The notes under the pieces are model-generated. The model was not told the origin of the DNA. It searched no databases and saw nothing but the letters and a program-made list of their open reading frames with translations. Source: a virus. Taken from it: DNA of 64,000 nt. Position 1 is the first letter of the stretch. Each line of letters opens with the position of its first letter. Positions 6,015-59,071 of the stretch are shown here, in pieces. The translations under genes were made by a program, and so were the position numbers. The stretch is from positions 1-64,000 of IMG/VR virus record IMGVR_UViG_3300032267_001142. One strand, 5' to 3'.

Positions 6015-6332
6015 CTAGATTTTACGAATGTCAACAGGATAAGGGCCGTTTCTCGTGATTGAGATTCCCCAAAATTTGAGAGCCGCGTCCTCATATTTGC
6101 GAAACTTCTTGCCATGATGAATGCCACCCTCGCAAAAGTGAGTTACTTCATGGACAGCCATGTAGGTCGCGATTGTTTCGCTTTTCGTGAGAATCCACTT
6201 GGGCATCGTGATATACCCTTCATCGGTGAAAGCTTCGGCGCGGCACGTATCGCCCCAGACGACGCGAATCGGGCTCAGCTCCAAATGCTTTGCGGTCACG
6301 TTGACCACAGTTTCAAACATCGCTTTCGTCAT
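6015..6332 (-). CDS. SprT-like/zincin HExxH metalloprotein
   Basis: YMAVHEVTH...HHGKKFR; leaderless start at 6332 after TTGCTA-16-TACAGT. Confidence 0.75.
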   Translation of the reverse strand: MTKAMFETVVNVTAKHLELSPIRVVWGDTCRAEAFTDEGYITMPKWILTKSETIATYMAVHEVTHFCEGGIHHGKKFRKYEDAALKFWGISITRNGPYPVDIRKI

Positions 6333-6412
6333 GTGGAGACTGTAGACGCTGGCACGGAGATAGCAAGAAGTATTTTCAACTATCCGGGCAGCCAGGAACA
6401 CCAGAGCAGAGT

Positions 6413-25324: not shown

Positions 25325-25537
25325 TTATCGTGTTTGAAGATATGGGTCGGCCTCTTCAATAGGGTCACGGGCGGAGTCGTTCTCACGCGCCTCATCATGA
25401 ATGGCGCTGAATACGCCGTCTTTCTCAACTGTTTCTACCGCGTTATGAGCTAGGACTTTGTGTTGTAATCTGCGTATAGCTTTCAGTCCGGTAGGAGGGA
25501 AGGTGCCAGCGTAATGAAATTTGGTATAATCGTCCAT
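25325..25537 (-). CDS. Small hypothetical protein
   Basis: 70-aa ORF in the operon direction. Confidence 0.5.
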   Translation of the reverse strand: MDDYTKFHYAGTFPPTGLKAIRRLQHKVLAHNAVETVEKDGVFSAIHDEARENDSARDPIEEADPYLQTR

Positions 25538-42237: not shown

Positions 42238-43743
42238 GTGAAAGACCCAGAAAGCTACAAATACAAAGCTCGGTTCTCCGCCTCACTTAGATGTGATGCG
42301 GATTTCGGTGGTCTCGCGGATAAAAAGCTTTCGATAGCCTCTTTAGATGGGCTCTCTAAAATCCTTCCTACTTACGAAAAGGTCGACGACTTTCAAGACC
42401 TTCTTCCTGTAGTAGGAAACGCTTGCGTTATTAACTACGCGAATCTTCGAGACGAGATGGTCGATACCGCAACCGGTCTCAACCTGAAAAGATGCTTCGC
42501 TAATAAGTTCATGAACGTCGAGCACGACCGCAAAACGGTCGTCGGCCACTGGAAAGACGCTTTTTATACAAAGTTTCATCCTGAATATAGATTAGGCAAA
42601 GGCTCTGAGATTATTCCAGACGAAGAAATTGAGGGAATGACCGAGCCTTTCAATATCGCCCTATCGGGATTCGTTTATGGAGTGGCTTATCCCGCGCTAG
42701 CTAAACAAATAGTAATAGCGAACGACCCTGACAGCGAAGATTACTTGAGTATATGTATTTCTTGGGAATTAGCTTTTGATTCCTATAGCATCGCTTTGGG
42801 TTCGTCTAGGAAGTTGTCTGATTGTGAAATTCTAACTTCGGAAGCTGATATAGAAAAATACACCCCATATCTTATCACCGAAGGCGGAAGAGGTGTCGCG
42901 CCTGATGGACGCAGAGTATTCAAGCTCATCAATAACGGCGTGTTGCCTCTCGGGGCGGCTTTGACTTATCAACCAGCCGCACAAGTAGCCGGTCTCGTAG
43001 CTGATGCTCCCAATAAAAAACTTACTACAGACGCAAATATAATTGAGGATTCTTCAAAAAACATTTCCCAAGAACATCCTGAGCTTGTAATGACTAATAG
43101 CACAATGAACACTCTCAATTCTCTAGCCGACATTAAGGCACTTACCGAAGAAGACGCAAAGCAGTATACTCTCGCTAGCGTTAAGGGCCTAATCGAAACA
43201 GAAATTCAGCAACTAGTCGAAGCTCACGACAAGAAGGCTCAAGAAGAAGCCCAACGCGCCGCTACTGCCGAAAAGAAAGCAAATGAAGCGCTCGCAAGTT
43301 TGGGTTCACTTAAGTCCGAACTCGAAGCACTCAAGCTCGCCGAAGCGCAGCGAGCCGCCGCAGAAGCTTTTAATAACCGCATGTCGGCTCTTGATGAGTC
43401 CTTCGTATTGACAGTTCCTCAGAGGACTGCCATCGCAAGCCAAATCAAAGACCTCGACGAAACTCAGTTCTCGAACTGGAAGACTTCCGTTTTTGAACCT
43501 TTCGCAGTAAAGCGCGAAGCGGTCGTAACGAAGAGCCAGACTGTCGCTTCCGTTACCGCTCCGATTCCTCCAGTAGCCGACGTCAGAAGTGTCGCCGCAG
43601 AAGCGGTCGCCGCAGTCCAACAGCCAGCGACTCCAGTTGTCGCAATCGCTGCCGCTCAGGCTCCAGAACCAATTTCCGAAACTCTTCGCAAGGCTTTTTC
43701 AACCGAAGCTGGCGGAGGTCTCACAATCGTAACCAGAAACTAA
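42238..43743 (+). CDS. Prohead protease / scaffold fusion
   Basis: MNVEHDRKTVVGH and SICISWE protease-like motifs, then a long Ala/Glu coiled coil and Pro/Ala tail; lies upstream of the capsid genes. Confidence 0.7.
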   Translation: MKDPESYKYKARFSASLRCDADFGGLADKKLSIASLDGLSKILPTYEKVDDFQDLLPVVGNACVINYANLRDEMVDTATGLNLKRCFANKFMNVEHDRKTVVGHWKDAFYTKFHPEYRLGKGSEIIPDEEIEGMTEPFNIALSGFVYGVAYPALAKQIVIANDPDSEDYLSICISWELAFDSYSIALGSSRKLSDCEILTSEADIEKYTPYLITEGGRGVAPDGRRVFKLINNGVLPLGAALTYQPAAQVAGLVADAPNKKLTTDANIIEDSSKNISQEHPELVMTNSTMNTLNSLADIKALTEEDAKQYTLASVKGLIETEIQQLVEAHDKKAQEEAQRAATAEKKANEALASLGSLKSELEALKLAEAQRAAAEAFNNRMSALDESFVLTVPQRTAIASQIKDLDETQFSNWKTSVFEPFAVKREAVVTKSQTVASVTAPIPPVADVRSVAAEAVAAVQQPATPVVAIAAAQAPEPISETLRKAFSTEAGGGLTIVTRN

Positions 43744-50263: not shown

Positions 50264-51052
50264 ATGAGCAATAAAGAGACAAAGGAAATGTATAAGTTCG
50301 TCTTCCCTCAGAAGACGATTATTGATGACAGAGAAGTCAAAGTCGACGAGTCTGGCAACGAAACGACAGTAATAACCAAAAAGCCGTCTTTTGTAGACCG
50401 CTCAATTAGACTGACCGTAGCTACTCGCCGCCAAATGGACGATGCTGAACTTTATTACAACGTGCTGGTAAGCAAGGGCATTCAGGCCGGTCTGATGAGC
50501 CGTCAGCTTTTGCAAAAGCGCTTTCTCGATGATGGTGGTCTTTTGGCAGAGGGGCAGAAATCCAAAGAGAAGTCCCTTTATGAATCCTTGAGCGAAAAAG
50601 AGTCGCAGTATTACTCTTTGCTCACGAAGCAGGACAAAACCCAAGAGGATACTGAGTCTCTCGCCAAGATTCAAAAAGAGCTGGCGCTGTTGAAGCATGA
50701 ACTTCAGTCTTGGGAGATGAGCAAGATGTCTATCTACGACATCACGGCGGAAAACCGAGCGCGCAACAAGACTATCCTCTGGTGGCTTTTTGAACTTAGC
50801 CAGATTAAGAATGATAAAGGCGAATGGGTGGCTCTATTTCCAGGAAAAACGACAGAAGAAAAATCAGACAAGTATCATTCACTCTTAGAGGGCGAGGGTT
50901 TAACTAAGGAAGACACGGAATTCTATCAAAACGTTATTTCTAAGTGTCTCATTTCTGTTTCCTATTGGTATTATGGCCGAGCCGAGTCGCAAGAGGATTT
51001 CGAGAAAGCTCAGCAAGAAATAGACAGGGACTCTAAGCTTCTTGCGGAGTAA
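50264..51052 (+). CDS. Tail assembly chaperone (gpG-like position)
   Basis: Acidic helical protein between the tube and TMP genes. Confidence 0.6.
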   Translation: MSNKETKEMYKFVFPQKTIIDDREVKVDESGNETTVITKKPSFVDRSIRLTVATRRQMDDAELYYNVLVSKGIQAGLMSRQLLQKRFLDDGGLLAEGQKSKEKSLYESLSEKESQYYSLLTKQDKTQEDTESLAKIQKELALLKHELQSWEMSKMSIYDITAENRARNKTILWWLFELSQIKNDKGEWVALFPGKTTEEKSDKYHSLLEGEGLTKEDTEFYQNVISKCLISVSYWYYGRAESQEDFEKAQQEIDRDSKLLAE

Positions 51053-51058
51053 AACAGG

Positions 51059-52066
51059 ATGAGCGAGACTTCAGCGAAGTCTATCGCTTTTTTGCGAAGG
51101 GTTTACTCTGAGATATTCTCTGGGTATACGCCTTTTATTGACCCGATAAGTGGAAATAGGGCGTTCATCCGTCACGTCTCTTCTTCGGAGCAGTCGGAGC
51201 TGGATGCCCGATACGAAGAGATTCTTGAAGACATCGTCTCTAAAGGCGTCCCGAATGAGGCGTCAGCACTTGCTATCGCTAAAGAGCGCGGTTTCTGGAA
51301 AGACTCTACTGACAAAGAGTTAGAAATAAAAAGAGAAGAGCTTCGTCAATTGAGGGATACGAAGAAGTGTCTGATTTTACCTTCTCAGATATGCAGCATC
51401 GACAAATCTATCGCTGATGCCGAAAGTTACATTCGGGGCGTCGAAATTGAGCGCGAGGAAGCTTTAGGTGTGACAGCGGAATCTCTTGCGATGGCTAGAT
51501 TGAATAACGTCTATATCCAACTAATGATGTTCTGCGACAAAAAGTTGGAAGTCCCGCTTTTTCCACCGGAAAGGTTCGATACGCTACAATATCGAGAGGT
51601 AACTAACGTGACGGCGGCATATAACGCCGCGATGTCTAAATTCGCGAACGTGAACATTAAGAATCTTTCGGTCGCCGCGTTTGTGCAAAATATGTTCAAT
51701 CTAGCTGGCAAGAAGCCATATTCTTTTTTCGGCAAAGCTATAGGCGGTCTGACCTTTTATCAAATAGAGTTGATGAATTATGTCGCTTATTTTTCTGCGC
51801 TTTTGTCTTCAGAAAACAGACCTCCTGACAGTATAATGGACGACCCAGAAAAAATCGTCAACTGGTATACTGCGGAAAAGAACAGTCGTGAAGCGCTTAA
51901 GTCTGGCAATGGGTCAGTGTCTATCGCCGGAGCGACTCAAGAAGATTTACAGCAATTGGGTGTCGCGAATAAAGTCGTAGATTTGGCAGCGATAGCCAAG
52001 AAAAAAGGCTCAACGGGCCTGACTATGGATGAGTTAATGTCTATTTCCCGTGGTGCGTCGTCATAA
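51059..52066 (+). CDS. Second tail assembly chaperone (gpT-like position)
   Basis: Immediately upstream of TMP; same reading frame as 50264..51052. Confidence 0.55.
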   Translation: MSETSAKSIAFLRRVYSEIFSGYTPFIDPISGNRAFIRHVSSSEQSELDARYEEILEDIVSKGVPNEASALAIAKERGFWKDSTDKELEIKREELRQLRDTKKCLILPSQICSIDKSIADAESYIRGVEIEREEALGVTAESLAMARLNNVYIQLMMFCDKKLEVPLFPPERFDTLQYREVTNVTAAYNAAMSKFANVNIKNLSVAAFVQNMFNLAGKKPYSFFGKAIGGLTFYQIELMNYVAYFSALLSSENRPPDSIMDDPEKIVNWYTAEKNSREALKSGNGSVSIAGATQEDLQQLGVANKVVDLAAIAKKKGSTGLTMDELMSISRGASS

Positions 52067-52102: not shown

Positions 52103-55100
52103 ATGCCAACTAGCGTTACTAACATACAGGCTAATTTAGACATGGTGCCAGTGAGCACCAAGGTCGACAACTATCTGTCCGGACTGGAGAGAAAGACTTA
52201 CAAAATCAAATTCGACGCTCAGCCGCTTGGTCACTTAAGCGGAAAAGCCTCCGAGTTTGAAAAGTCTCTCGAAGCTGCTAATGCGCGTGTCGTCGCGTTC
52301 GGTGCGTCGGCAAGCCTGATTGCTGGCGTAGGAACCGCCATGAAAGCGATGGTCAGGGAAGCCGTTCTCGTCGACAGAGAACTTACTGACATCAATGCTA
52401 TATTGCAGGCGTCTACCGGAAACCTCCAAAAGTTTGGTGATAGTCTGTTCGATATCGCAAAAAATACAGGCTCGTCCTTCTCTCAGGTTGCCGACGCCGC
52501 TAAGGAATTTGCTCGTCAAGGTCTTTCAATGGAGGAAACGTTGTCGAGAACGAACGGAGCGCTCGTCTTGACGCGTTTGTCGGGTTTGGAAGTCCAAGAC
52601 TCTGTAAAGGCTTTGACTGGAACTCTCAATACTTTCACGAAAGAGGCTCTAGGAGTTTGGGAAGTCGTGAACCGTCTCGCGAATGTTGACGCCGCTTTCG
52701 CCGTAAGCTCGGCTGACTTGGCCACAGCTATATCCCGCGTAGGTAACGTCGCTGAAGACTCGAAAATCAGTCTTAATGAACTTCTTGCTGCGGTTACCGC
52801 AGTTCAACAGAGAACTGCACGAGGCGGCGCGACTATCGGTGAAGCTTTCAAGACCATCTTTACTCGTCTTGAGCGTTCTGACACCATCGAGAAGCTTGGT
52901 CAGCTAGGTATCGCCACAAAGAACGTAGAAGGTCAGTTGCTTCCAGCAATGCAGGTGATGGAGACCCTTGCTGACAGGTTCTATACCCTTAGCGATTCTC
53001 AGCAGTCTTACATTGCCGAAGCGGTCGGTGGAGTTCGTCAGTTAAACATTCTGAAAGCTCTTCTCAAGGACTTGGGCTCGGAATATTCGATTTATAAAAG
53101 CTCCTTAGACGTAGCCAACAATACGACTAACGAGGCTACGACCAGAAATAACCTTCTCAATCAATCATTAGCCGCTCTTAAAAATAGGGCGTCGGTAGAT
53201 TTTTCTAAGTTTTCTGCGGCGACTCAGACAGCTTTCGCTCCCGCTTTGGAAAAGATATTTGGAGGATTTTCAGAAGTCGTCGCGGGCACGAATCTAGAAT
53301 CTAGTGGTAAGAGCATGGGAGACGCCATATTGAAAGGTCTGGGCTCAGTTATCTCGGGGCCGGTCTTGCAAGCCGTCACCGTTTTGGGTGTTAAATTCCT
53401 AGCTCAGTTTTCCGGTTTCGCGGCGAAGTCGTTGCAGCAGGTTCTTAATATCGGTAGCGTTTCTCGTAACGAGCTAGCCTTGCAGAAGGACATAAACGCC
53501 GTATTAGCTCAGACGCCTCACCTATATGACCAGATTCTTACAAAAGCTAAAAGTACTGTAGATGTTGTTCGTATTCTTTCCGAACACACAAAAGAACTAC
53601 AACTTGCAGGAGCGAGACAAACAAATATAGTAGGAGGCTCAGCCGCGCTACTCAACTCGTTAGGAGCTAAAGGCTCGTCTGAAGGAAATGGAAATTTTAA
53701 GCTAAAAGCTTCTGGATTCGTGCCTAATTTTGTAGACCCTATCGCGGCAATGGGGGAAGTCGCTAGTGCAAAACGCGCAGGGTATAACATATCACCTTCT
53801 GAGGTGCGCTCTATGCGGGCGCGTATTGACGGACGTAGCACTGAGGTTGTTTACAACACCCGCGAGACTGTAATCCCTAATTTTGCAGGGACCGGAGAAC
53901 CGGCGATAGTTCCTCCTAACGCGTCTATCTCTGACCTTATTAGCAGAAAATATGCCGCGAAAGGCGTCATGCCGGGCGGGCAAGAGCTAATTGGAAAAGG
54001 CTCATATCGCCGAGTATATACTCACGAAAAGGGAATAGAAAGCATTCCTCGTTCTGCTGAAGAGGTTTATCCTTCTGTTTCTAAGTTCATGACGCTGGAC
54101 GACGTTAGGGAGCTTATGGCCAGAGAAAGGCGTACGCGGCCAGCGTTGCAGAAGTCTATTGGAGACTTGGGCCTCGGACCAAAAGTATTCGATATTAGGG
54201 AAGACGGTTCTTATGTGGCCGAAAGAGTTTTGATGCCAAAGCTATCGGAGGCTTTAGCCGCAGGAACGATGACCAGTAAGGAAGCTTCTTCCATTCTGGA
54301 GAAAGCAAAGAAATCGCTAAAGGCCAAGGGTCTCGGAAATCTAAACGACGTAACATTTAATAATGTTGCCGGTAACGTAAACACGGGCAAGTTTTCTGTT
54401 TTAGATTTTGGTGGCGGGTTCGTCCCTAATTTTGCGAATTATTTTTCCGCGCCTACGAAGCGCTCAGAGCAACTGCCAGCCGATTTCCTTGAAAAGCTTC
54501 GTTTTCAAGGCCACATGCCTCGCGTTAGAATTCCCGCTAAAGATTTGGCGGTTTTTACGCCTGAGACTTTTAATTTCGGCATAGGTGATGGTTATGCTAG
54601 CCCTTTGGAGGCTGGGACTCAGCTTTACGGATACGGCAAAGAGGACATCGCTGAAAAACTAAGAGTTCCAACCGTGAACGGCGTGGCTTATGACGCCGGT
54701 ATTTCTGCTAGATACGGTAATCTAATGAAGGGTTTAGCTGGGCGAGGCGAGGCTGGAGCGGTGCTTCAGTCCATATTTGAAGACCAAGCTAAGAAAGGTA
54801 ACGACCGCATTATGCACGGTTTAGCTGTCGACGCTGGCGCGGTTTTCAGTTTGAAGACCGATGCCGGAAAGTCTCGTAGCTATCGCGATAACGGCCCCGA
54901 CAGTAGTGGCAAAACTTTTGAATCTGATTTCTTTAGGCAATATTTGAGTGGTTCACCTCTGCCGTCCTCAAACCAGCCGGTAGACGTCTCGGCAGCGAAT
55001 ATTGAAAAACTTAGGTCTGGAGATTTCAAAGCCTCATTGCCCTCTTGGATAACCCGTGGAGAATTAAAGATTTCGGCCTTTGAGTATTCTCAGCGCCGTG

Positions 55101-58100
55101 GCAAATCAACAGGAGCTTCTCCTAGCATCAGCCGTATCGTCGCTAATGAGCTTGTGTCGCGCCTCGACGAAGCCCTGCCAGCGATAATCTCTGACCCATC
55201 GGAGCTGAGAAGGGCTCTCAACGAAAAAACCAGAAAAGGAGAGACTTTCGGCTCAGTCCTGTCCAGAACTGCAAAATTGAACCCCGCCATATACAAGGGG
55301 CGCGGATTCGTTCCTAATTTTAGCTCCTCTCAAATTTCAGCGAGAGAGGCTATCGCGAGCGGTCTTACCTCTCAGATTCCTGGTCTCGGCGAAGCGATTT
55401 CTAGAGAAGTTTCTGGAACAGGCGTCTCTTTGGATGATACGAGAGTAAACCTCGGCGGACATTTGCCAGTTTCAGTAACAAACGTCAGAGACGAGGGACC
55501 ATTAGCTCTGCCTGAAATAGGCGCTGCCAGAGTTTCTAGAAGAGGCGGAAATCCTCGCTTAGCAGGAAGCGGAAAAGAGTATCTATCAAGAGGTTACGTT
55601 CCTAACTTTGCGACCGAAGACGACGAAGGTTTATTGATGCCTAGCAGCTCAAATCTGCCGGATAGAATTGTCGTTGTTGAGGTTAAAAATGCAAACGAGC
55701 TTGGACAAAAAATAGGCAATGCCGTAGCCGATGCAGACAAAAAGGCCAGCACTTCCGCTGGGACCGACACTAAAAATACGCCAACCGCTCCGAAGGTCGT
55801 CACTCCTCCTGTTTCAAGCTCCGAGAGCTTTCTTGACGGGGGAGACATAGCCCCGTCTAAGGACAAAGAGGAGGCTATAAGAAAAGACAAAGAAGATACT
55901 CGCAGAAATCAACTCGCCTTGGAGAGGGAGGGCGAAGCTTATCAAAAACGCAGGGAGTCCAAGGCTAAATGGGAGCAAAGGGCGATATACGGAAGCCTTG
56001 GCGTTTCGTTCTTAGGTGGCGCTATATCTAGTCAGTTTGGTGGAGATACTATCTCTGATAGAAAGACGGGCAGAAGAGTCGACGCCGCTGGAGAAGCCAT
56101 CTCTACTGGCTTAGGTGCATTTTCTGCAACAGGCAACGTTTACGTTGGAGCTGCTGCTGCGGTTGGTAGTTTGTTATTCAATTTAGGCAAACTAGGGACG
56201 ACTTTTGAGGACTTAGCAAAAGAGAGCGAAAAGCTTACCGCGAAGCATGCTGAAGTGACTCAGTCGCTTTCTGGGTTCTCGGTCGCGGTATCGCAGACTG
56301 ATGACTTAATCAAAGGCGGAGCCTCTAAGTCTGCTATTTTCCGAGCGCAGCAAGCTGAACAGGAGGCGTTCAATAGAACTCCGAAGGAATTACAGTCCAA
56401 GCTTCTCGCGGCGAATCGCGACCAAGAGACTCTCGCTAAAATACAAATAGACATAGCCAAAGAGCAAGAAAAAGAAGCTGCATTCGCAAATCTTTCTACC
56501 GTATCTAAAGGATATCAAGAAAAGGCTTACAAAAACCGAGGCTTTTTCGAGAGAGTGGGTTCAGGATTGGGACTTCCTTCGCTTGCTAACTTCGTCGCTG
56601 GAGCCACCGGCTTGAAGAAAACGGACGAGCTTAGTTCAAGTAACTACGATAAAGATGCTTATAAAGAAATCTCCGCCCTAATCCAAAAAACCGGCATTCT
56701 AGATAATCTCGACAACTCTCAACTGTCAGAATTGCGTGATAAACTAAAAGCCGCTCAATATACAAGTGCTAACGATTCTGCTTCGCTGACTCCTAATCAA
56801 AATACCCAAGCTAGAATTGCCGCTGTCGTAAAGCAACAAACTGGAGCGTCGTTGCCCGAAGAGTTTTCAGAGACCAATGGGACTATCGCCATCAAGGCGT
56901 TCTTGAGCGCCATCACTGGACAAGAAAATCTAAAGAGGTTTACTGACGCGCAGAAATCAGCTCAAGCTTTTTATATTTCGATTCGTTCGCTTTCTACCGC
57001 GTTTCAAGAATCGCAGAGGGCTACGTCAGCTTACGATAGCTTCGTGACTCAGAAAAGCTCTTCCGCCGCAGGTCTGGCTTTTGGCGGACTCCGTGGTATT
57101 GCGTCGTTAAACGAGCCATTTACATCTAGCGATTCAAAAATTCAAGAATCTTACAGAATTTCTAAAGCAGAAATCGAAACTTCAAGAAGTCTTGAACTCG
57201 AAAAAGCTCGTAACGAAGCAAGGGTTAACTTGAGTCAGGCAGTCTCTCCTCAAGTTATCGAGGAGGCGGTCTCAGGTAAGGGAGGAATAGCGTTTAAGGC
57301 CAACTTGAGGGAAGTTCTCGCGCAGGCGCAAACCGGAGACCCTTCTGTTATCGTCGCGAGACTATTATCATCTTTGGAGAATGCGAAAAATGGGAAAGCT
57401 GAAGGCGTTAGCGTAAGTGACTCCGCAGGAGCAGAACTCATAAGTACGCTCAAGACTTTACTATTCAATCAAAACTCGACAAAAGCCTCAATCAACGCGT
57501 CATTTAACGACAAATCTAACGATGCGTTTCAACAGGCCGGACTCGCTAGGACGGGAGCTGCGCTGGATTTCATAGGCAATCAGTTCAGGGGCTCTAAAGC
57601 CTTTTCGAGTGATGGTCAAGACATTTCGACTTCTTCTAAGGGATTTGCGGCGATACTAGAGGGAATAACGTTAACCAACGATAAGAGCGCGCAGAGACGT
57701 TTCAGACAGAGCTACAATAATCCCGTCGGCCCATTCGGTCCTGCGAGAGCTAATTTGGTATATGACGCCGAGCAAAAGAAGCTGCCGATATACGAAAACA
57801 TTGCGGCAGGAATCAAGGACGACGCCGCAAGCGGTCTTGGACCTACTCAGGAATTGGTTGATTTTCTAAACCGACAGGGTCGCTCGGCTGAAGCGGAAAA
57901 AGCCGCGAAAGGTCTTGCTCGAAATAGAGCCAGACTAGAAGGAGCTTACAGCGCGCAAGGCAAGAGCTTTCTGCAAAAAAACGGACTCGCTGATTTCGCT
58001 CAATTCAAAGACGCCATAAAAGGTGATGTCTTCGAGGGCTCATCTGGAGGTCGAGTTGATATATCTAGGACTTTGAATGATGTAGAAGCTGCCGTTAAGT

Positions 58101-59071
58101 CTACTGACTTCGGAAAAGCGCAAAGTCTTCTTTCGGGTTTGAGAACTTCTGCCAGCCCAATAGCCGCTAAGAAAATCGACGAATTTTCACAAAGAATCGG
58201 CGGTCTTAAGAGTCAGTCAGAATTACTGGGCGTCTCTGCGAATCTGCAAGCCGCTAAGGACTTGAAAGGCGGCGCTGGCCCACTTACAAATGATAAATAT
58301 TGGGAGGGCGTAATAAAGCTTTATGGCGCGTTGGTATCAAGGTTGACTTATTCGGAAAACCGCGAAGCGGTCGATACCGTAATGGGTTCTTCATTAGGCG
58401 CACTCAAAAATATTACATCTCTTGGGGCGAATCCCGCTGCAATTTTTACTTCTGGGGCTTTCAGCACCACGGGCGCAAAACTCAATAGCGAGGTTGAGGC
58501 TACTAGACTCTCATTGAGTGCCGCGATGGATAAGGCCACTCCTAAATTTGTAGACCCAAGACTGCCTCAGTATTCCGAAATTTATGCAGGACCGCAAAGA
58601 AGAGTGCAGGACGCTATAACTGCTTTACCTGCTGGCACTGGTGTCGATAAGAGCATGGTGGCCATCATGAGTGATGGTTACGGCGCTGACAGGGAGTCTA
58701 CCGATAGAAGGGTTTATGAGGACTTCGCTAGAATTCTGCGTGAAAATAACAAAGTCGGCTCGTTGCTAGGTTCGACTCCTACTAATGACATAGTGGGTAG
58801 CGTTATGAACGCGGTTAATGATGCGCTGCGTCGCGACGTAGGCAATCGTTACGAATCTGGGAATCTCGGCAAGGATATCAAGGTAAACACTGATGGGACA
58901 ATTACTCTCAACGCTTCTGTAAATATCAAAGCCGACGAGTCGGATGTAGCTCAGAGAGTTAAATCGGAATTCGATAAGGTGTTTGAAAATCTTCAGTATC
59001 AGATTCAACAAATCATCAATCAAACTGGGGCGGTAATTCCTCCTAGGTCGTTCAGTCAGCCTGTTCAATAA
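52103..59071 (+). CDS. Tape measure protein (2322 aa) with internal cargo domains
   Basis: N-terminal TP901-type TMP repeats (A.EFARQGL, L.L.RLSGL, ELLAAVTAVQQRTARGGA.IG.AFKTI..RL) and Gly/Ala-rich helical segments. Internal G[FY]VPNF repeats at aa 538, 772, 1068, 1164 and a kinase-like domain at aa ~625-770. Confidence 0.9.
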   Translation: MPTSVTNIQANLDMVPVSTKVDNYLSGLERKTYKIKFDAQPLGHLSGKASEFEKSLEAANARVVAFGASASLIAGVGTAMKAMVREAVLVDRELTDINAILQASTGNLQKFGDSLFDIAKNTGSSFSQVADAAKEFARQGLSMEETLSRTNGALVLTRLSGLEVQDSVKALTGTLNTFTKEALGVWEVVNRLANVDAAFAVSSADLATAISRVGNVAEDSKISLNELLAAVTAVQQRTARGGATIGEAFKTIFTRLERSDTIEKLGQLGIATKNVEGQLLPAMQVMETLADRFYTLSDSQQSYIAEAVGGVRQLNILKALLKDLGSEYSIYKSSLDVANNTTNEATTRNNLLNQSLAALKNRASVDFSKFSAATQTAFAPALEKIFGGFSEVVAGTNLESSGKSMGDAILKGLGSVISGPVLQAVTVLGVKFLAQFSGFAAKSLQQVLNIGSVSRNELALQKDINAVLAQTPHLYDQILTKAKSTVDVVRILSEHTKELQLAGARQTNIVGGSAALLNSLGAKGSSEGNGNFKLKASGFVPNFVDPIAAMGEVASAKRAGYNISPSEVRSMRARIDGRSTEVVYNTRETVIPNFAGTGEPAIVPPNASISDLISRKYAAKGVMPGGQELIGKGSYRRVYTHEKGIESIPRSAEEVYPSVSKFMTLDDVRELMARERRTRPALQKSIGDLGLGPKVFDIREDGSYVAERVLMPKLSEALAAGTMTSKEASSILEKAKKSLKAKGLGNLNDVTFNNVAGNVNTGKFSVLDFGGGFVPNFANYFSAPTKRSEQLPADFLEKLRFQGHMPRVRIPAKDLAVFTPETFNFGIGDGYASPLEAGTQLYGYGKEDIAEKLRVPTVNGVAYDAGISARYGNLMKGLAGRGEAGAVLQSIFEDQAKKGNDRIMHGLAVDAGAVFSLKTDAGKSRSYRDNGPDSSGKTFESDFFRQYLSGSPLPSSNQPVDVSAANIEKLRSGDFKASLPSWITRGELKISAFEYSQRRGKSTGASPSISRIVANELVSRLDEALPAIISDPSELRRALNEKTRKGETFGSVLSRTAKLNPAIYKGRGFVPNFSSSQISAREAIASGLTSQIPGLGEAISREVSGTGVSLDDTRVNLGGHLPVSVTNVRDEGPLALPEIGAARVSRRGGNPRLAGSGKEYLSRGYVPNFATEDDEGLLMPSSSNLPDRIVVVEVKNANELGQKIGNAVADADKKASTSAGTDTKNTPTAPKVVTPPVSSSESFLDGGDIAPSKDKEEAIRKDKEDTRRNQLALEREGEAYQKRRESKAKWEQRAIYGSLGVSFLGGAISSQFGGDTISDRKTGRRVDAAGEAISTGLGAFSATGNVYVGAAAAVGSLLFNLGKLGTTFEDLAKESEKLTAKHAEVTQSLSGFSVAVSQTDDLIKGGASKSAIFRAQQAEQEAFNRTPKELQSKLLAANRDQETLAKIQIDIAKEQEKEAAFANLSTVSKGYQEKAYKNRGFFERVGSGLGLPSLANFVAGATGLKKTDELSSSNYDKDAYKEISALIQKTGILDNLDNSQLSELRDKLKAAQYTSANDSASLTPNQNTQARIAAVVKQQTGASLPEEFSETNGTIAIKAFLSAITGQENLKRFTDAQKSAQAFYISIRSLSTAFQESQRATSAYDSFVTQKSSSAAGLAFGGLRGIASLNEPFTSSDSKIQESYRISKAEIETSRSLELEKARNEARVNLSQAVSPQVIEEAVSGKGGIAFKANLREVLAQAQTGDPSVIVARLLSSLENAKNGKAEGVSVSDSAGAELISTLKTLLFNQNSTKASINASFNDKSNDAFQQAGLARTGAALDFIGNQFRGSKAFSSDGQDISTSSKGFAAILEGITLTNDKSAQRRFRQSYNNPVGPFGPARANLVYDAEQKKLPIYENIAAGIKDDAASGLGPTQELVDFLNRQGRSAEAEKAAKGLARNRARLEGAYSAQGKSFLQKNGLADFAQFKDAIKGDVFEGSSGGRVDISRTLNDVEAAVKSTDFGKAQSLLSGLRTSASPIAAKKIDEFSQRIGGLKSQSELLGVSANLQAAKDLKGGAGPLTNDKYWEGVIKLYGALVSRLTYSENREAVDTVMGSSLGALKNITSLGANPAAIFTSGAFSTTGAKLNSEVEATRLSLSAAMDKATPKFVDPRLPQYSEIYAGPQRRVQDAITALPAGTGVDKSMVAIMSDGYGADRESTDRRVYEDFARILRENNKVGSLLGSTPTNDIVGSVMNAVNDALRRDVGNRYESGNLGKDIKVNTDGTITLNASVNIKADESDVAQRVKSEFDKVFENLQYQIQQIINQTGAVIPPRSFSQPVQ

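Follow-up and report, generated by a model that had tools for sequence, protein, structure and literature searches.

A repeated peptide delimits seemingly exchangeable modules, one of them kinase-like, in the tape measure protein of a large uncultured phage

Introduction

Tape measure proteins (TMPs), whose length sets the length of the phage tail, may contain embedded enzymes, as in TM4 and in pb2 of T5. The present work concerns such a protein, encoded by one open reading frame (ORF) of 2322 amino acids (aa) in a 64,000-nucleotide stretch of DNA (hereafter the window), which forms the first 64 kb of the 186,105-bp IMG/VR virus record IMGVR_UViG_3300032267_001142. The record has direct terminal repeats, is estimated to be complete and stems from an uncultured phage. 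The central part of this TMP contains several copies of a short peptide of the type G[FY]VPNF, which we call the joint, and a first-pass annotation, made from the letters of the window, had read the segments between the copies as interchangeable effector domains packaged in the tail lumen and injected with the DNA. We describe here the joint, the modules that it delimits, including a kinase-like domain named D1, and their distribution among related TMPs.

TMPs of the TP901-1/SPbeta type (PF10145, TIGR01760) have the N-terminal core in common with the window's TMP and may likewise carry a catalytic domain acting at entry; YomI of SPbeta is annotated as a transglycosylase. The domains known to be embedded in TMPs are cell-wall hydrolases, present as one or two per protein and with no repeated joint, whereas the family described here bears kinase-like, zincin-like or unassigned domains in an array of several slots, whose content appears to be exchanged at a conserved peptide.

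A related arrangement is found in the polyvalent proteins of phages and conjugative elements, which include kinases without C-terminal subdomain and processing domains of the zincin type (Iyer, Burroughs, Anand, de Souza and Aravind, 2017; PMC5512222). Like the window's TMP, they are giant virion-associated chains of unrelated enzyme domains with a cassette-like content, and they are thought to enter the cell with the DNA. Their kinase clade resembles D1 in that the whole C-terminal subdomain is absent, although between the catalytic His and Asp that clade carries an insert which the D1 family lacks. A zincin-type peptidase has been proposed to process the polyvalent chain, whereas the window's TMP has no peptidase and a module with an HExxH...EE signature is found in its relatives. 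Moreover, polyvalent proteins are packaged in the head, whereas the carrier is here the tail ruler, and the window's TMP holds one enzyme-like domain (D1) beside unassigned modules. TMPs are nowhere mentioned in the article of Iyer et al. (2017), which describes no repeated delimiting peptide.

As in the window's TMP, a short peptide borders the conserved delivery part and the exchangeable domains of polymorphic toxins. This peptide is VENN in CdiA and PxxxxDPxGL in Rhs proteins, where it is part of an autoprotease, and each protein ends in one C-terminal toxin with an immunity gene adjacent. The window's TMP differs from these systems by its several slots, which are internal rather than C-terminal, and by its context in a phage virion. 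No toxin family was recognised in it and no immunity gene was seen; downstream, all relatives have conserved tail genes of about 530-570 aa. Finally, the Sle1-type effectors of actinobacterial contractile injection systems (CIS) are related to TMPs and have an exchangeable functional domain (Nagakubo et al., 2026; PMC13277306). Their resemblance to the window's TMP lies in a scaffold of TMP origin that is loaded in a tail-like tube, with a functional domain that varies from species to species and was exchangeable in experiments. They belong, however, to a CIS and not to a phage, carry one C-terminal domain with no reported repeated joint, and show no sequence relation to the family of the window's TMP.

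Precedents thus exist for wall hydrolases embedded in TMPs, for polyvalent proteins, and for exchangeable domains in a CIS effector related to TMPs. Our literature search, on the other hand, brought up no description of TMPs with a repeated joint peptide or with modules of a kinase-like or zincin-like type, nor any that links TMPs to polyvalent proteins in this sense. The present work adds the kinase assignment, with the caveat of a Lys-to-Arg replacement, the HExxH module, the codon evidence, an extended logo of the joint, the avoidance of cysteine, and the fall in identity from 94% to 41% between two relatives.

The joint peptide

Each copy of the motif listed by the first-pass annotation was found again in the reading frame of the 2322-aa ORF: [FYV][VI]PNF starts at residues 539, 590, 773, 1069 and 1165, and a degenerate GVMP at residue 621 (Table 1). 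By chance, about 0.003 such matches would be expected in a protein of this length, according to a rough estimate from typical residue frequencies, compared to the five seen. A six-frame scan of the window returned a single further match, IIPNF on the minus strand at 25530, and among the ORFs of at least 80 aa of the whole 186-kb genome the form G-aromatic-[VI]-PN-aromatic is confined to the TMP gene.

Relatives were collected by an exhaustive phmmer search with residues 520-1200 against 1.84 billion representatives, which yielded 31 clusters, nearly all of them TMPs of 1500-4900 aa; a word-indexed search and a scan of viral contigs added further ones, so that the motif set comprises 35 proteins. 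The strict form G[FYHWLM][VIL]PN[FYLIM] occurs 49 times in these 35 TMPs versus 0.075 times in shuffled sequences, and the repeat noticed in the window is thus an element of the whole family rather than a chance repetition. The logo drawn from the 49 copies reads [AS]-x-G-[YF]-[VI]-P-N-[FYL]-[AV]-[DN], with Ala or Ser at position -2 in 43 of them. Three copies are even found in each of the distant viral contigs L002-L004, whose N-terminal TMP regions are 35% identical to that of the window. Ahead of the conserved module A described below, the joint is reduced to G[HY][IVM]P in many relatives, and G[FYH][VIM]P is found in every relative at the position of joint 1. In two models predicted with AlphaFold 2 (AF2), joints 1, 3 and 4 have a predicted local distance difference test score (pLDDT) below 50 and lie between modules at 70-90, and for this reason we regard them as linkers. 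The joint is a conserved nine-residue element under protein-level selection across the whole TMP family.

The first-pass annotation had also considered the motif as a recombination junction, and its conservation could then reside in the DNA, a short run of conserved nucleotides promoting the exchange of cassettes with the peptide as a by-product. Indeed, the five PNF copies of the window are written with CCT (5/5), TTT (5/5) and AAT (4/5), a uniformity that exceeds the codon usage of the gene (about 3e-4, as a rough product). However, the Gly and Val codons differ among the same copies, whose longest common run is about 10 nucleotides, and relatives use mixed synonymous codons for unchanged amino acids, as in contig L006 where CCA/CCT/CCC, AAT/AAC and TTT/TTC alternate in the motif while the residues are fixed. 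Similarly, Ala/Ser at position -2 and Ala/Val at position +6 are kept as classes of residues. Since codons vary in the motifs of relatives and amino acids do not, selection acts on the peptide and not on the DNA, which makes a recombination signal at the DNA level very improbable; exchange at the joints is better explained if these are places where junctions are tolerated.

Exchange of modules among related proteins

The first-pass annotation had proposed to catalogue the domains lying between the motifs in relatives. Once this was done, module content was found to differ among TMPs and homology to break at the motifs. Module content was called with hidden Markov models of the modules; a single-linkage clustering of the segments between joints had chained nearly everything together. 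The BLAST alignments of relatives with the window's TMP end in the interval 605-635 and at the other breakpoints given in Table 1. As many as 40 of the 70 internal endpoints lie at most 12 aa from a joint, versus 4.8 expected, an excess to be read with reserve in that the endpoints are not phylogenetically independent.

Modules are also relocated: module A is found at residues 1246-1334 in relative P0032 and D1 at residues 1214-1370 in P0027, each flanked by joints. A sharp breakpoint is offered by P0014 and P0021, which are 94% identical up to residue 628, just past module A, and 41% identical beyond, where P0021 has about 175 extra residues. On a maximum-likelihood tree of the N-terminal 520 aa of 26 proteins, at least nine changes of slot content are required, compared to a possible minimum of four. 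Slot content follows the clades in part, and both TMPs with a kinase may go back to one origin. Taken together, these alignments support the existence of swappable, motif-delimited modules in a hypervariable insert of the TMP (residues ~536-1170).

Relatives reach 3300-4900 residues with at least eight joints, such as P0032 (4929 aa) and P0027 (3283 aa; L006:3001-12852). If TMPs of this size were helical throughout, at 0.15 nm per residue, the tails would be 500-700 nm long; the inserts are probably excluded from the length so measured.

The window's TMP contains no cysteine in its 2322 residues, and the family only seven in about 64,000 residues, the outlier P0029 being set aside, whereas the other long ORFs of the phage have 1.5% cysteine. 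The avoidance extends to the kinase and peptidase-like modules, and it fits a protein handled unfolded and passing through the envelope.

The kinase-like domain and the other modules

The insert was folded as two separate pieces; MAFFT piled all segments on module B, and aligning the complete proteins globally gave a noisy result. D1, between joints 2 and 3, was modelled with a block-mean pLDDT of about 67-90, mostly above 75. Foldseek retrieved WbdD, PknA, Rio2, CK2 and Bud32 as top PDB matches, with probabilities of 0.94-1.0 and weak E-values (7e-3 to 5e-2). VIA-align, which is independent of Foldseek, placed kinases in all of the 50 top rows, with PknE as the best (Z 9.6, root-mean-square deviation (rmsd) 3.2 over 124 residues), and with Bud32 (Z 8.6), Rio2 (8.4), OspG (8.1), Ark1 (8.1) and NleH1 (7.2) among the others. 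Viral structures matching D1 are mostly stand-alone kinases of phages and giant viruses. The model shows the N-lobe sheet, helix C, the catalytic loop and the DFG strand, and the corresponding residues, i.e., the Gly-loop G631-K-G633-S-Y, D749 and N754 (LNDVTFNN) and D768-F-G, are invariant in relatives P0006 and P0027. Of the modules in the insert, this one is enzyme-like, with a predicted kinase fold.

D1 stops at DFG (residues 768-770) and joint 3 comes directly after; the sequence that follows is different in P0006 and P0027. These two proteins hold complete copies, in the same slot and with 50% identity to the window's D1 in P0006, and between GFVPNY and GLVPNF at residues 1214-1370 in P0027. 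When scanned alone, the copy of P0027 matches the Pfam family ABC1 (PF03109; E=1.2e-5, 25.0 bits for a cut-off of 22.9), with 19.3 bits within the full protein, whereas the window's D1 has no Pfam match at E<=10. A further copy, interrupted by a frameshift, lies on contig L009 of a Richelia metagenome-assembled genome (MAG). On this contig (L009:1-3000; NCBI GCA_012033295.1, Richelia sp. MAG), the annotation splits the TMP into three genes, separated first by the frameshift inside the D1-type copy, which is either an assembly error or the mark of a decaying gene. The contig resembles a phage or prophage binned with the cyanobacterial MAG.

Among described proteins, D1 is comparable to OspG/NleH and Bud32/RIO, structural neighbours in which the kinase fold takes up 160-250 aa and the C-lobe is reduced (for OspG, rmsd 3.1 with 117 residues aligned). 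It differs from them by an identity of 9-16% and by being shorter, since it ends at DFG, embedded in a TMP and, in the window, with Arg in place of Lys. OspG and NleH pass unfolded through a narrow injection needle.

The first-pass annotation had placed two unrelated globular domains between the motifs. The first of them, D1, folds in the models (pLDDT 75-90), but the second, an orphan stretch of 287 aa named D2, was not confirmed as a fold, with a pLDDT mostly below 50. D2 has no homologue outside its own cluster among the 1.84 billion representatives, no Pfam match and no usable match in the ESM Atlas, and its VIA-align matches are generic helical repeats (Z<=5). This lack of an assigned fold is not evidence of novelty.

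Two related linkers had also been reported, and they do exist as modules A (residues ~545-606) and B (residues ~1075-1160), though their relatedness is statistically weak (BLAST E=0.02, hhalign P=0.03). MAFFT aligns one on the other and the order of their predicted secondary structure is alike, a helix followed by a beta-hairpin, so that homology is plausible. Module A was modelled with a block-mean pLDDT of about 67-84 and with strands at model residues 49-56, 59-66, 70-72 and 82-84, the strand at 70-72 being short and formed by the first residues of its internal VIPNF. Module B (pLDDT 76-91 over model residues 300-340) has a core of the form ...A[IV]xRE...G[VT]...RV...V[ST]NxRDE... It is conserved in P0003, P0004, P0005, P0007 and P0023, the latter on a contig of 1.9 kb, and in a short form in L002-L004, always with the joint on both sides. 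Identity to the window's copy is 50-60% over the aligned segment in P0003, P0004, P0005 and P0007, and 31-33% by tblastn in L002-L004.

A peptidase-like module and the search for a protease

In 11 relatives (P0009, P0010, P0013, P0014, P0017-P0022 and P0024), module A is directly followed by a module of about 155 aa (e.g., residues 638-796 of P0018), which is conserved and contains hhHExxH. Some 50 residues further an invariant Glu follows, in most cases as one half of an EE pair. This putative gluzincin-like peptidase ends in an AGG-x-[IMV]-P joint or a degenerate version of it. It occupies the slot held by the kinase in the window and is the commonest occupant of the first slot. The HExxH motif itself occurs in 17 of the 35 TMPs. 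The module is left unnamed by Pfam, and P0032 has a weak match to DUF6782, a 'putative metallopeptidase'. In P0027, two HExxH sites occur beside a kinase copy and an incomplete second module A.

As regards the cleavage signal postulated by the first-pass annotation, no protease was found in the window's TMP and none was identified in the genome. ORF 42238-43743, which had been taken for a prohead protease, has no match to a protease in PHROGs or Pfam; its only match is a weak, coiled-coil-like one to RNase_Y_N (E=0.0016). Two small ORFs of the SprT/DUF45 type with hhHExxH, of 128 and 140 aa, are found at 6015-6401 on the minus strand of the window and at 115104-115526 on the plus strand of the genome (L013:605-1027). 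They were rejected as candidates for a protease acting in trans, being unrelated to the peptidase-like module and without link to the TMP. Natural gene splits were also considered as a proxy for cleavage, but the split TMPs of L009 and L011 look like frameshifts whose breaks lie away from the joints, and are uninformative.

Proposed mechanism and alternatives

We propose that the joints fence the modules of the TMP and are each the handling site of one conserved partner, and that the modules are probably carried into the host, a reading to which we give an even chance. A TMP fills the tail lumen, leaves first at infection and enters the envelope; on this basis, the modules would ride in the tail and refold in the host. 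Free of cysteine, they would travel extended and refold in the host envelope or cytoplasm. D1 would bind adenosine triphosphate (ATP) and phosphorylate a host target, the window's copy perhaps only binding in view of the Arg at the place of the beta3 Lys. The joint would be recognised by its partner, the likeliest candidate being a protease that releases the modules once they are ejected. Many relatives could supply this protease themselves, in the HExxH module of the TMP, whereas in the window's phage it would have to act in trans. Exchange at the joints would follow, since junctions at these sites keep every module and every site intact.

Several points weigh against this proposal. That the joint is a cleavage signal and the modules injected effectors is an inference. 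A tail lumen is about 4 nm wide and would be exceeded by three folded modules of 16-31 kDa per TMP trimer, so that an extended state must be assumed. In the window's D1, R650 replaces the ATP-anchoring beta3 Lys of P0006 and P0027, and the catalytic loop reads N-L-N-D, compared to H-A-S-D in P0006 and H-A-D in P0027, the His of H-x-D being lost. Because of both changes the activity of this copy is doubtful and could be reduced or absent. For D2, which is perhaps no domain at all, no confident model was obtained, while module A is, by its conservation in nearly all relatives, a core part of the TMP family and not cargo. The effector claim of the first-pass annotation is only partly sustained, being weakened by the Arg for Lys of D1, by the unrecognisable fold of D2 and by the place of module A in the core. 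As for self-processing, the window's TMP has no HExxH module and its genome no homologue of that of the relatives, and relatives that bear the module right after module A mostly have only the reduced G[HY][IVM]P. The TMP of the window, without HExxH, has the most canonical joints, so that self-processing cannot be the general rule.

Alternatively, the joint might never be cut and represent a structural or packing element, the modules staying tethered to the TMP, so that any activity would be that of domains anchored in the membrane where the phage enters. The joint could then make contact with the inner wall of the tube or with tail assembly chaperones, hold the three TMP chains in register between bulky inserts, or serve as a prolyl switch for refolding. 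This explanation is rated almost as likely as the proposal of carried modules, because the TMP with the best joints lacks any protease; none is recognisable in the genome either. Moreover, the joint flanks module A in every relative, even those without extra modules, and is thus tied to the core structure; the VIPNF of module A is modelled as a short strand, so that elsewhere, too, this peptide could be added as a strand; and the insert lies between hydrophobic segments (residues 410-440 and 1340-1365), as would a tethered loop. The invariant aromatic-aliphatic-Pro of the joint may also be compared with the case of HK97, whose infection reportedly depends, via the TMP, on a periplasmic prolyl isomerase. 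On the contrary, the joints are unstructured in the monomer models, no partner was identified, and joint 3 stands between D1 and D2 with neither module A nor module B nearby, which argues against a mere boundary of module A.

Another explanation makes the modules lineage-specific structural or length-adjusting tail inserts rather than host effectors, the window's D1 being a decayed pseudokinase. The replaced Lys and lost His of this D1 agree with it, as do the broken copy of the Richelia MAG, the absence of detectable fold or relatives for D2, and the fact that any insert changes the tail, whose length is set by that of the TMP. We consider it unlikely, given that the Gly-loop, the catalytic Asp/Asn and the DFG Asp are kept in all three complete D1 copies and that the 50% identity between the window and P0006 implies purifying selection; furthermore, the same slot holds other enzyme-like modules in relatives, the avoidance of cysteine covers the modules, and the frameshift of L009 may be an assembly error. 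The proposal of carried modules could also be extended by making the joint a signal for both release and timing. After ejection, a conserved protease would cut at G|[YF] or N|[FYL], leaving each freed module with an aromatic residue or Leu at its N-terminus. Such residues are N-degrons in bacteria, so that the modules would act briefly before being degraded, and large uncultured siphophages would own a programmable device, with an interchangeable junction, for the injection of several effectors. The cutter would be the HExxH module in the relatives that have it and, in the window's phage, a host protease of the envelope or cytoplasm. Such a scheme appears quite unlikely to us.

Should the modules be delivered as we propose, the tails of large uncultured siphophages would bring ready-made, exchangeable enzymes into the host before the DNA enters, and a second route for virion-borne effectors would exist beside the head-packaged polyvalent proteins. 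The question would then be raised of how domains of 16-31 kDa pass such a lumen and refold. The joint provides a sequence handle to catalogue such cargo in metagenomes, most of the cargo found here being outside known families, and marks a natural junction where foreign domains might be inserted in a scaffold delivered by the tail.

Gene context and additional observations

The TMP assignment relies on matches to PF10145 (PhageMin_Tail; residues 119-309, E=1.5e-28, 100.5 bits for a cut-off of 33.2), to TIGR01760 (residues 73-395, E=3.2e-34, 118.5 bits for a cut-off of 28.8) and to 13 TMP families of PHROG. The nearest cultured phages are SPbeta and phi3T (YomI), together with some phages of Staphylococcaceae, with matches confined to residues 12-502 and, for the SPbeta and phi3T TMPs, an identity of 26-29% over residues 12-378. 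No cultured-phage match was obtained among 50,697 phage records by blastn with positions 53000-56500 and tblastn with residues 500-1200, and a sequence search of the PDB with the insert, the whole TMP and the relative P0018 gave nothing under E=0.19. On the basis of this homology, the gene encodes the TMP of a large siphovirus-like phage.

Table 1. Features of the tape measure protein gene in the window
Feature	Residues (aa)	Position (nucleotides)	Strand	Basis or remark
Tape measure protein gene, cysteine-free		52103..59071	+	ORF translation; PF10145, PHROG and TIGR01760 matches
TP901-type TMP core, conserved	73-395	52319..53287	+	TIGR01760; inside the stretch of aa 12-502 matching cultured phages (e.g., SPbeta YomI)
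Joint 1, ASGFVPNF	536-543	53708..53731	+	Motif scan; pLDDT about 31
Module A, small domain with a helix and four strands	545-606	53735..53920	+	Conserved at this site across about 25 TMP clusters
Internal VIPNF of module A	590-594 (VIPNFA 590-595)	53870-53884	+	Motif scan
Joint 2, degenerate AAKGVMP	618-624	53954..53974	+	9 BLAST alignments with relatives stop exactly at aa 624
D1, predicted minimal protein-kinase-like domain without C-lobe	629-769	53987..54409	+	AF2 model, Foldseek, VIA-align
Joint 3, GGGFVPNFA, immediately 3' of the D1 DFG	770-778	54410..54436	+	pLDDT <50; homology with P0006/P0027 stops at aa 775/778
D2, orphan 287-aa stretch	779-1065	54437..55297	+	Between joints 3 and 4
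Joint 4, GRGFVPNF	1066-1073	55298..55321	+	Alignments with 7 relatives begin at aa 1067-1077
Module B, small helix-plus-hairpin module	1075-1160	55325..55582	+	Homologues in relatives
Joint 5, SRGYVPNFA	1162-1170	55586..55612	+	Alignments stop at aa 1169-1180
Charged, acidic low-complexity linker, isoelectric point 5.1	1171-1290	55613..55972	+	Composition; unalignable with relatives
Gly-rich hydrophobic segment, start of the resumed conserved C-terminal TMP body	~1295-1365	55985..56197	+	Hydropathy peak at aa 1349-1357

Beyond the insert, the homology of relatives to the window's TMP resumes at residues 1268-1306. Hydropathy indicates a hydrophobic segment at residues 60-90, in addition to the two that enclose the insert. 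The TMP ORF sits in a late block of genes on the same strand, 3' of a portal-like gene, and is the largest gene of the tail module. Most of the late genes around it have no family match in PHROG and Pfam searches, but gene order around the TMP is conserved in relatives (L005-L008). A read-through from ORF 50264-51052 into ORF 51059-52066, in the same frame and encoding the two conserved proteins of 262 and 335 aa upstream of the TMP, was ruled out, the junction being an ordinary TAA followed by a start codon. Near 24 kb of the window, GC content (guanine plus cytosine) falls from about 0.51-0.53 to about 0.44-0.48, and this step coincides with a switch from many small ORFs on mixed strands to the long same-strand late block.

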